Shown one piece after another: positions 33,075-36,589 of a stretch of 64,000 nt of DNA; the stretch's first letter is position 1, and each line of letters opens with the position of its first letter. The notes under the pieces are model-generated. The model was not told the DNA's origin and did no database searches. It worked only from the letters and a program-made list of their open reading frames with translations. This DNA comes from Escherichia coli (GTDB lineage: Bacteria; Pseudomonadota; Gammaproteobacteria; Enterobacterales; Enterobacteriaceae): assembly GCF_003334355.1 (NCBI RefSeq), contig NZ_QOWP01000023.1; one strand, given 5' to 3'. The position numbers and the translations under genes are program-made.

Positions 33075-34091
33075 ATGTCCACATTACGCCTGCTCATCTC
33101 TGACTCTTACGACCCGTGGTTTAACCTGGCGGTGGAGGAGTGTATTTTTCGCCAGATGCCCGCCACGCAGCGCGTTCTGTTTCTCTGGCGCAATGCCGAC
33201 ACGGTAGTGATTGGTCGCGCGCAGAACCCGTGGAAAGAGTGTAATACCCGGCGGATGGAAGAAGATAACGTCCGCCTGGCACGGCGCAGTAGCGGTGGCG
33301 GCGCGGTGTTCCACGATCTCGGCAATACCTGCTTTACCTTTATGGCTGGCAAGCCGGAGTACGATAAAACCATCTCCACGTCGATTGTGCTCAATGCGCT
33401 GAACGCGCTTGGCGTCAGCGCCGAAGCGTCCGGGCGTAACGATCTGGTGGTGAAAACCGCCGAAGGCGACCGCAAAGTCTCAGGATCGGCCTATCGCGAA
33501 ACCAAAGATCGTGGCTTCCACCACGGCACCTTGCTGCTCAATGCCGACCTTAGCCGCCTGGCAAACTATCTCAATCCGGATAAAAAGAAACTGGCGGCGA
33601 AAGGCATTACCTCAGTGCGTTCCCGCGTGACCAACCTCACCGAGCTGCTGCCGGGGATCACCCATGAGCAGGTTTGCGAGGCCATAACCAAGGCCTTTTT
33701 CGCCCATTATGGCGAGCGTGTAGAAGCGGAAATCATCTCCCCGGACAAAACGCCAGACTTGCCAAACTTCGCCGAAACCTTTGCCCGTCAGAGTAGCTGG
33801 GAATGGAACTTCGGTCAGGCTCCGGCATTCTCGCATCTGCTGGATGAACGCTTTAGCTGGGGCGGCGTGGAACTGCATTTCGACGTTGAAAAAGGCCATA
33901 TCACCCGCGCCCAGGTGTTTACCGACAGCCTCAACCCCGCGCCGCTGGAAGCCCTCGCCGGGCGACTGCAAGGCTGCCTGTACCGCGCGGATATGCTGCA
34001 ACAAGAGTGCGAAGCGCTGTTGGTTGACTTCCCGGACCAGGAAAAAGAGCTACGGAAGTTGTCGACGTGGATAGCGGGGGCGGTAAGGTAA
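33075..34091 (+). CDS. lplA: Lipoate-protein ligase A
   Basis: 338-aa ORF starting [25 protein letters not shown]. Confidence 0.97.
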
Positions 34092-34122
34092 CTCGCTGAT
34101 TAAAATATCCAGGGAAGGAAAT

Positions 34123-34386
34123 ATGATCGATCTGGAAAACCAGGAACGGGAGATTATCAATTTAATGTTCAGCCAGCGTATTTCCTGGCTAGCCGCCGTG
34201 CGTATCAGGCATAAATTATCGCTTGCTGAAGTAAGTAAAATGTTAGGTATCTCGATTAATTCTCTAAAACAGATCGAAAAGACGGAACGGCTTAGCTCAA
34301 ACATCAAAAGCAAAATGGCAGAAATTTATGGTTGTCCACCAGAGTTGCTGATATGCCCTTCCTGGATGACGGCTGAACATAAATGA
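34123..34386 (+). CDS. Small HTH-domain protein (possibly an N-terminal remnant of the HipA-like kinase YjjJ/HipH)
   Basis: 87-aa ORF with GGAAGGA Shine-Dalgarno 6 nt upstream; helix-turn-helix-like segment LSLAEVSKMLGISINSLKQIE; sits where K-12 carries yjjJ as I recall. Confidence 0.55.
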   Translation: MIDLENQEREIINLMFSQRISWLAAVRIRHKLSLAEVSKMLGISINSLKQIEKTERLSSNIKSKMAEIYGCPPELLICPSWMTAEHK

Positions 34387-34484
34387 ATAGATTCGTGAAT
34401 AGATACTTGAATGTATTTTATTTTTTATCTATATGAAAAATAATAGTAAATCTATAAATCAGTTGCTATTGATGAATAGATACT
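34385..34484. repeat. AT-rich motif cluster (GAATAGATACT direct repeats and ATCTATA inverted copies)
   Basis: GAATAGAT at 34385, TGAATAGATACT at 34396 and 34473, ATCTATA at 34427 and 34450. Confidence 0.4.
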
Positions 34485-34514
34485 AAAAGCCGGAGCAGTC
34501 TCCCACTCCGGCTT
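34485..34514 (-). terminator. Rho-independent terminator downstream of deoD
   Basis: gccggag-loop-ctccggc hairpin with a T-run on the minus strand. Confidence 0.65.
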
Positions 34515-34545
34515 AACACGACAATCGCCTTTCAGCGAAACACAA

Positions 34546-35265
34546 TTACTCTTTATCGCCCAGCAGAACGGATTCCAGTGCGATTTTGATCATGTCGTTG
34601 AAGGTGGTCTGACGCTCAGCGGCAGTGGTCTGCTCGTGAGTGCGGATGTGGTCAGACACGGTGCAGATGGTCAGGGCTTTCGCGCCAAATTCTGCAGCGA
34701 CGCCGTAGATACCAGCCGCTTCCATTTCCACGCCGAGGATGCCGTATTTTTCCATCACGTCGAACATTTCGCCGTCCGGAGAGTAGAACAGGTCAGCGGA
34801 GAACAGGTTACCAACGCGAGCATCAACGCCCAGTGCTTTAGCCGCGTCTACCGCGTTACGCACCATGTCAAAGTCAGCGATAGCGGCAAAGTCATGGTCT
34901 TTAAAACGGATACGGTTAACTTTGGAATCGGTGCAGGCACCCATACCGATAACGACGTCGCGCAGTTTTACGTGCGGCAGAACAGCGCCACAGGAGCCTA
35001 CGCGGATAATTTTCTTTACGCCGAAATCGGTGATCAGTTCTTTGGTGTAGATGGAGCAGGACGGGATACCCATACCGTGACCCATTACGGAAATTTTGCG
35101 GCCTTTGTAAGTACCGGTGAAGCCCAGCATACCGCGAACGTTGTTCACTTCACGGGCATCTTCAAGGAAAGTTTCAGCAATATACTTCGCACGCAGCGGG
35201 TCGCCTGGCATCAAAACTACGTCAGCGAAATCGCCCATTTCTGCATTAATGTGTGGGGTAGCCAT
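34546..35265 (-). CDS. deoD: Purine nucleoside phosphorylase
   Basis: 239-aa ORF starting [34 protein letters not shown]. Confidence 0.98.
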
Positions 35266-35344
35266 TGTTTTATCCTTATCAACATGTTTTCACCCTCTCC
35301 CTGTGGGAGAGGGCCGGGGTGAGGGCATCAAGCCGCACCCATTA

Positions 35345-36589
<1,245 letters not shown>

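Follow-up and report, generated by a model that had tools for sequence, protein, structure and literature searches.

Replacement of hipH (yjjJ) by an unrelated helix-turn-helix gene between lplA and deoD in most sequenced Escherichia coli

We analyzed a 64,000-nucleotide stretch of an E. coli genome (contig NZ_QOWP01000023.1, hereafter the window) at the interval that separates lplA from deoD. In K-12 this site holds yjjJ, also named hipH; in the window it holds orf87, a gene for an 87-aa helix-turn-helix (HTH) protein on the opposite strand, followed by an AT-rich patch with direct repeats. Our reading, to which we assign a probability of about 0.72, is that the locus has two states and that the interval represents the one found in most E. 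coli, in which hipH has been replaced, and that it is not a decayed yjjJ.

Under this explanation, native hipH would be transcribed from the deoD side towards lplA, from a promoter carrying one distal and three promoter-proximal copies of a motif, ATCTATTCA. In an ancestor, one illegitimate recombination event would have swapped the hipH coding sequence (CDS), from its start codon to the lplA stop, for a low-GC gene of foreign origin lying in the opposite orientation. The orf87 haplotype would then have spread, and would persist beside the hipH haplotype, via homologous recombination in the lplA and deoD flanks. The incoming gene is most likely read through from lplA, and Orf87 is probably a small dimeric DNA-binding repressor like its structural relatives. 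The AT-rich patch would be an orphaned hipH promoter-operator aimed into the 3' end of orf87. In hipH strains the same module would most likely serve HipH autoregulation, as an operator to which the protein's N-terminal HTH binds, while in the window strain it would be a relic in slow decay, with the deoD terminator after it.

The gene swap is ordinary accessory-genome turnover, and its by-products are a HipH-less majority of strains and a candidate HipH operator. Work on HipH (YjjJ) in persistence and genotoxicity has used K-12 and a few uropathogenic E. coli strains. About 75% of sequenced E. coli, including B/BL21-type, O157:H7, and ATCC 8739 strains, have no hipH and carry an uncharacterised small regulator instead; therefore, conclusions about HipH are not transferable to them. 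The four ATCTATTCA direct repeats, at fixed positions from Erwinia to Escherichia, are a first concrete candidate for a hipH cis-element. In the literature, the DNA target that the HipH HTH recognizes and the way in which the toxin is controlled are stated to be unknown, so that such an element makes the question directly testable. We did not find a candidate HipH operator described in the searchable literature, and neither orf87 nor the repeats nor the dimorphism turned up in searches on the locus tags, the motif, and yjjJ together with phylogroup.

Two alternative occupants of one site

The interval between the two flanking genes spans 34092-34545 (454 bp), and the whole window matches E. 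coli ATCC 8739 at 100% identity. The features on which the argument depends are as follows.

33075-34091, plus strand: lplA (lipoate-protein ligase), the left flank; homology to the K-12 haplotype runs up to 34090, within the stop codon
34091-34377, plus strand: haplotype-specific segment of 287 bp; K-12-type genomes have 1330 bp with the yjjJ/hipH CDS instead
34113-34119, plus strand: Shine-Dalgarno-like GGAAGGA, 3 nt ahead of the orf87 ATG
34123-34386, plus strand: orf87, an 87-aa Cro/C1 (XRE) HTH protein, WP_000566150.1
34378-34380, minus strand: CAT, a minus-strand ATG aligned to the K-12 yjjJ start codon; the right breakpoint
34384-34392, 34396-34404, and 34408-34416, minus strand: three tandem proximal ATCTATTCA repeats with a 12-bp period, at positions -15, -27, and -39
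34410-34439, minus strand: promoter-like core of the putative orphan hipH module, TTTTCA (34439-34434), an 18-nt spacer, and TACATT (34415-34410)
34473-34481, minus strand: distal ATCTATTCA repeat at position -104, 65 bp start-to-start from the outermost proximal repeat
34486-34515, minus strand: deoD intrinsic terminator hairpin with a 12-bp stem (-22.8 kcal/mol), then UUUU
34546-35265, minus strand: deoD (purine nucleoside phosphorylase), the right flank

Pairwise blastn places both ends of the exchange precisely. Homology between the haplotypes stops at 34090 and restarts at 34378, where the yjjJ ATG aligns. In a K-12 derivative, yjjJ (443 aa) fills exactly the space between the lplA stop and a 166-bp spacer that adjoins deoD. 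The minus-strand ATG at 34378-34380 may thus be a vestige of the hipH start codon, judging from this alignment. The window has the same deoD/lplA slot as the K-12 YjjJ/HipH locus, where a monocistronic HipA-family kinase toxin with an N-terminal HTH resides (PMC8262856), and likewise the spacer with one plus three ATCTATTCA copies and the deoD terminator. It differs in having no hipH CDS of any kind, with an unrelated opposite-strand gene in its place.

The two occupants have nothing recognizable in common. In the window orientation, K-12 yjjJ lies on the minus strand and orf87 on the plus strand, so that yjjJ runs away from deoD downstream of the repeat module whereas orf87 is convergent with that module. 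By blastn, neither strand of yjjJ matched the 287-bp unique segment, and the best BLASTP alignment between orf87 and YjjJ, over 6 residues at E=0.21, was not meaningful. Their HTH classes also differ: orf87 belongs to the HTH_3 Cro/C1 class, whereas the YjjJ N-terminus, with its HTH at residues 15-34 (PMC8262856), gives a weak MarR_2 hint and looks winged-helix or MarR-like. The HipA_C profile matches YjjJ only. The GC content of orf87 is 41.7%, against 53.8% for yjjJ and 53-58% for lplA, deoD, and yjjJ together.

A genuine internal deletion of yjjJ exists in strain WB61 (locus L083, NZ_CP020025.1, 2949-3140; L numbers label the loci compared). There, a 64-codon N-terminal HTH pseudogene remains on the minus strand, 78% identical to YjjJ residues 1-64, in contrast to orf87. 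The idea that yjjJ lost its kinase domain by such a deletion and left its own N-terminal HTH as the 87-aa open reading frame (ORF), which draws on the presence of an HTH protein at yjjJ's K-12 position and on the true deletion remnants in WB61, Phytobacter (L025), and a Kosakonia sp. (L040), can be dismissed, since orf87 lies on the opposite strand with no DNA or protein similarity, another HTH class, and a GC content of 41.7% vs 53.8%, and the real remnant in WB61 is minus-strand and YjjJ-like.

A preliminary description of the interval, made from the letters alone, had correctly reported how close lplA and deoD lie, the 87-aa plus-strand ORF with its GGAAGGA, an HTH-like segment in that ORF, and the K-12 order deoD - yjjJ - lplA with a 443-aa HipA-like protein. 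It had offered two readings: an orphan HTH left after deletion of the yjjJ kinase domain, or a different small regulator at this place. The second is the one that our results support. The first made a likeness between the 87-aa ORF and the YjjJ N-terminus its own touchstone, and as there is none, it fails on its own terms. Nor does the reference strain have the same 455-bp interval, as K-12 carries yjjJ there.

In a sample of 5426 complete E. coli genomes, the orf87 segment was present in 4074 and yjjJ in 1348. The carriers sum to 5422 of the 5426 genomes, consistent with no co-occurrence, and orf87 and yjjJ are therefore alternatives at one site, with K-12 in the minority. The earlier framing of the locus as "reduced" is misleading, given that the orf87 state is the E. 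coli majority. Strains in this state include BL21-derived, O157:H7, and O121 genomes as well as ATCC 8739. Three copies of the orf87 segment were reported on plasmid records. Within orf87-positive strains, the 3' end of lplA (window 33900-34091) differs from L088 and L090 at 19 of 192 bp (10%), far above what is typical of the core genome, which suggests imported segments around the junction.

The repeat module shared with hipH loci

The AT-rich patch contains a 9-mer core, TGAATAGAT, three times, at 34384, 34396, and 34473, with a degenerate fourth copy, TGAATGTAT, at 34408. Exact copies of TGAATAGAT number four in the 64-kb window, compared with 0.4 expected, and none of 100 shuffles reached four. 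One exact copy lies away from the locus, at 10505-10513.

The same motif recurs upstream of yjjJ in 11 of 11 genera, as ATCTATTCA at about -104, -39, -27, and -15, with an exact 12-bp period among the proximal copies and a distal-to-proximal spacing of 65-66 bp in all genera examined. The window module matches this arrangement with 0, 2, 0, and 0 mismatches at -104, -39, -27, and -15, respectively, and its layout is identical to that of the 11 hipH loci; the third proximal copy, at 34408-34416, is the degenerate one and reads ATACATTCA. The array also occurs in Pantoea, displaced as a unit by 11 nt and with a gene other than deoD upstream. Based on this identity of layout, we interpret the patch as an orphaned hipH promoter-operator. 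That the module accompanies hipH makes the HipH N-terminal HTH the most parsimonious candidate for its binder.

The promoter evidence comes from K-12. The K-12 spacer was bound by RpoD holoenzyme and by H-NS in genomic SELEX (systematic evolution of ligands by exponential enrichment), with a predicted promoter TTTTCA-18-TCTATT (PMC3946193), whose counterpart in the window is the promoter-like core listed above. The predicted position puts the -35 element within a central element, which reads TGAAAWGTAWAG on the plus strand and is conserved across the aligned lineages, and the -10 element inside a repeat. Reg-Seq reported two repressor sites in the yjjJ promoter, one of them attributed to MarA (PMC7567609), and cyclic di-GMP (c-di-GMP) induces hipH by acting at the promoter (PMC11452175). 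As in hipBA, the hipH module consists of four spaced sites straddling a promoter (PMC8262856); the hipH sites differ in being direct 9-mers with a 12-bp period, not palindromes.

The junction with orf87 is the same wherever orf87 occurs. In all five orf87 lineages, the TGA stop of orf87 supplies bases 1-3 of the first repeat, which argues for a single junction origin. Beside orf87 the module has eroded: one 12-bp unit is gone in L004, L019, and L091, the third proximal copy is degenerate in the window and in L088, and the module is nearly gone in L085, whereas all hipH loci keep three proximal units. Recombinants that combine orf87 with a K-12-type spacer make up 18 of the 5426 E. coli genomes, and 4027 have orf87 with its usual spacer. 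In one such recombinant (L089, strain 23CRST031, 424-850), orf87 is identical to that of the window and the crossover falls within the first two repeats.

These results also refine what had been said of the repeats. The direct repeat seen earlier is indeed present, as TGAATAGATACT at 34396-34407 and 34473-34484. The cluster had been proposed as an operator of the small ORF or a deletion junction; it does adjoin the replacement junction exactly, but it is not specific to orf87, being the conserved upstream module of yjjJ/hipH. Inverted copies of ATCTATA had been noted as well; ATCTAT is found at 34426-34432 and 34449-34455, but this arrangement is not conserved in other lineages.

The orf87 protein

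RefSeq/PGAP annotates WP_000566150.1 as a "helix-turn-helix domain-containing protein." Pfam assigns residues 23-76 to PF01381 (HTH_3; i-E=1.2e-6), with further matches to HTH_19, HTH_31, and HTH_25. An AlphaFold2 model was confident, with a mean predicted local distance difference test score of 90.1 and a predicted template modelling score of 0.81, and the top Foldseek matches to it were CylR2, the SinR N-terminal domain, C.BclI, P22 c2, and 434 Cro. These superimposed with a root-mean-square deviation of 1.5-2 A over 53-60 residues, at a probability of 1.0 and target TM-scores of 0.67-0.77.

Like the small Cro/C1 repressors (CylR2, SinR N-terminal domain, C-proteins, P22 c2/434 Cro), orf87 has the five-helix HTH fold and a similar size. 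It differs from them in having one more helix at the N-terminus (residues 4-18) and, at the C-terminus, a conserved YGC..LL.CP tail, in that neither a partner gene nor a palindromic operator was identified for it, and in the restriction of its family to a single chromosomal position in a few Enterobacteriaceae. Neither the repeat listing nor the cross-lineage alignment showed a conserved palindrome near orf87.

We consider orf87 an uncharacterised new member of the XRE family, and the family around it is tiny. An exhaustive HMMER search of 1.84 billion representatives returned about three full-length clusters plus generic HTH_3 matches. The best family match was a phage transcriptional-regulator PHROG (E=3e-10); a scan of viral contigs found no orf87 relatives, a PDB sequence search gave no relative at E<0.4, and PADLOC returned only its generic HTH model. 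The nearest outlier, P0081 (43% identity, 129 aa), lies in an unrelated context beside a DUF2357/PDDEXK_7 gene and was set aside as uninformative.

In five lineages orf87 is 86-87 aa long and lies each time between lplA and deoD. The ratio of nonsynonymous to synonymous divergence (dN/dS) is 0.15-0.32 in the eight between-genus comparisons whose synonymous divergence (dS) reaches 0.74 or more; L023 and L085, which form the closest pair, have a dN/dS of 0.60 at a dS of 0.41. Two alleles from E. coli are separated by 8 synonymous and 6 nonsynonymous codon changes. Judged by these comparisons, orf87 is a real gene under purifying selection. It begins 31 nt after the lplA stop, and in Superficieibacter (L019) only 6 nt after it, with no terminator between. 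Because of this short gap, we infer that orf87 is likely co-transcribed with lplA.

Competing readings and the age of the two states

Several observations weigh against the explanation we propose. XRE proteins are usually autoregulated from an upstream operator, and none is evident at orf87. Against the Escherichia lineage L004, the dN/dS of orf87 rises to about 0.7. Strain HSP60 (L091, 433-695) has a 1-bp-deletion frameshift in the gene plus the loss of one 12-bp repeat, and ISKpn26 splits it in MB22 (L092, 2533-3996); the disruptions and the L004 ratio therefore suggest that its importance in E. coli may be modest. Constraint also looks weaker in that the protein database contains many shortened variants. 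Our literature searches yielded no expression data for orf87. The module, for its part, is preserved beyond simple relic decay: E. coli, Superficieibacter, and UBA3516 still have copies that agree with the motif at 8-9 of 9 positions, despite synonymous saturation in orf87, and the module may therefore still be used. This persistence could come from a residual function, namely binding by Orf87 or a host factor or use as an antisense promoter, or it could come from occasional refreshment by recombination with hipH-type alleles. Finally, ChIP-exo (chromatin immunoprecipitation with exonuclease treatment) of tagged YjjJ gave no binding sites (PMC8464067), and Reg-Seq attributed one site in the yjjJ promoter to MarA (PMC7567609).

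It is possible, if somewhat doubtful, that ATCTATTCA is bound not by HipH but by a conserved host factor, such as a MarA/Rob-type protein, a c-di-GMP-responsive regulator, or H-NS. A host factor would explain why the repeats persist in both haplotypes and why the motif is conserved beside orf87, where HipH is absent, and the negative ChIP-exo, the MarA call, the binding of H-NS to the spacer, and the induction by c-di-GMP are all in keeping with it. To our knowledge, however, the ATCTATTCA 9-mer does not resemble the marbox consensus. The module also follows hipH even where the neighbour has changed, as in Pantoea, and does not occur at empty sites or where other inserts are present, and the negative ChIP-exo came from a toxic protein at low expression.

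We regard it as unlikely that orf87 and the repeats form a functional unit in which Orf87 itself binds ATCTATTCA, for instance to silence the convergent orphan hipH promoter. Such silencing would spare orf87 and lplA from antisense RNA, and a number of features agree with it: the overlap of the orf87 stop with the first repeat in five of five lineages, the persistence of the repeats by orf87 across saturated synonymous divergence, the lack of room for an upstream operator of its own where the gap is 6 nt (L019), and the tight linkage of E. coli orf87 to its own spacer (4027 genomes vs 18 recombinants). Yet the same motif serves hipH at the same positions in genomes that lack orf87. In L085, orf87 is intact although the module is down to one degenerate copy, proximal units were lost three times in orf87 lineages, and the recombinants with a K-12 spacer are viable. 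Moreover, Cro/C1 dimers normally sit on inverted, not direct, repeats.

A broader version appears improbable to us as well. In it, hipH and orf87 would be interchangeable cargoes on one conserved and still active module, with Orf87 or a shared host factor reading the one-plus-three ATCTATTCA array, and the two alleles would be a long-lived, cross-species balanced polymorphism in Escherichia.

Very unlikely, in our estimate, is a role of orf87 as a HipB-like orphan antitoxin or immunity protein, acting in trans against HipH- or HipA-type kinases so that the two alleles would be toxin and antidote. Orf87 shares its size class and general fold class with HipB (88 aa, XRE HTH) and, at the hipH locus, is mutually exclusive with hipH, and HipB overexpression rescues YjjJ toxicity (PMC9948734). 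However, no inhibition of HipH DNase activity by HipB was seen in vitro (PMC11452175), and mutual exclusivity is trivial for two genes that share one site. There is no sequence similarity to HipB either, with no BLASTP alignment at E<=100; the nearest structures are generic repressors and not HipB, and NCBIfam antitoxin models fall far below their cut-offs. Unlike HipB, orf87 never shares an operon with a kinase gene, and its neighbours are lplA and deoD, with no adjacent toxin gene, in all five lineages. The lack of HipB similarity and of a toxin neighbour therefore makes an antitoxin role unlikely.

The remaining alternative concerns which occupant came first. We surveyed the region downstream of lplA in 80 species representatives and classified each one. 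Most Enterobacteriaceae have just 50-100 bp between lplA and deoD. yjjJ occupies the slot in six genera at 60-95% identity (E. albertii, Citrobacter, Kosakonia, Pseudocitrobacter, Leclercia, and Silvania), with E. albertii at 95%, and decayed yjjJ fragments are found in two more representatives, Phytobacter (L025) and a Kosakonia sp. (L040). YjjJ homologues of 47-58% identity occur in Erwinia, Salmonella, Cedecea, and Pantoea, in the same slot near ytjB/lplA. orf87 was found in three surveyed representatives (87%, 54%, and 51% identity), and a fourth divergent copy (44%) lies on a metagenome contig, also between lplA and deoD. Within Escherichia, it is present in E. marmotae, Escherichia sp. 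E1130, and the divergent lineage L004, while E. whittamii has neither gene and 76 bp between lplA and deoD.

The occurrence of hipH in one and the same slot in genera from Erwinia and Pantoea to Salmonella marks it as the ancient resident. Sequence comparison portrays orf87 as a derived, rare, and foreign-looking replacement, and the empty lplA-deoD sites are probably losses. The reverse order, with orf87 ancestral and yjjJ inserted later in the K-12 and B2 lineages, could appeal to orf87 being the E. coli majority allele and to its presence in E. marmotae and another Escherichia lineage. We give it hardly any credence: yjjJ is found in the slot in Enterobacteriaceae and Erwiniaceae alike, preceded by a conserved module of its own, orf87 has only about three full-length clusters by exhaustive search and a foreign-like GC content, and the polarity of the module is sensible solely as the promoter of a minus-strand gene.

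Replacement at this site resembles the alternative-cassette ("replacement island") polymorphisms of Enterobacteriaceae hotspots, in which two mutually exclusive inserts lie within conserved core genes; it is likewise cross-species, and other cargo occupies the junction in other genera. What sets it apart is that the promoter-operator of the lost gene was kept intact, with the breakpoint at the start codon.

Across the Enterobacteriaceae (L003-L082), the lplA-deoD junction is a multi-state hotspot that is mostly empty. Its other cargo includes fimbrial-subunit-like ORFs (L029, L058), RAYT-like (REP-associated tyrosine) transposases with arrays of repetitive extragenic palindromic (REP) sequences (L032, L080), a lipoprotein (L027), a membrane protein (L054), a 406-aa secreted protein (L070), and inserts of 5-6 kb (L011, L050, L056, L060). 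A module common to these inserts was considered and rejected, as the ATCTATTCA motif is absent from all of them. Parts of the module remain at two sites that have neither gene: in E. whittamii (L003, 9015-9100), part of the distal repeat persists beside the deoD terminator, and Kosakonia quasisacchari (L022) keeps two repeats. In strain PK8241 (L084, 3398-3856), IS200C lies in the deoD-yjjJ spacer.

Direct folding of the deoD terminator hairpin as read on the plus strand gave a weaker structure (-15 kcal/mol) without a U tract. The consensus terminator scan did not pick up the deoD hairpin because its T run is only four bases. The consensus promoter scan gave a single weak plus-strand promoter-like site, over the orf87 ATG, and an Rfam scan of 33900-34700 at permissive E-values found no RNA family. 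Another 87-aa ORF lies antisense to orf87 at 34313-34050; it is not open in other genera and was therefore judged spurious. Beyond deoD, the spacer before deoB contains a boxC-like GC-rich repeat, CCCTCTCCCTGTGGGAGAGGGCCGGGGTGAGGGC, at 35290-35330, within a block (35277-35375) that has 54% identity to K-12, whose spacer there is shorter.

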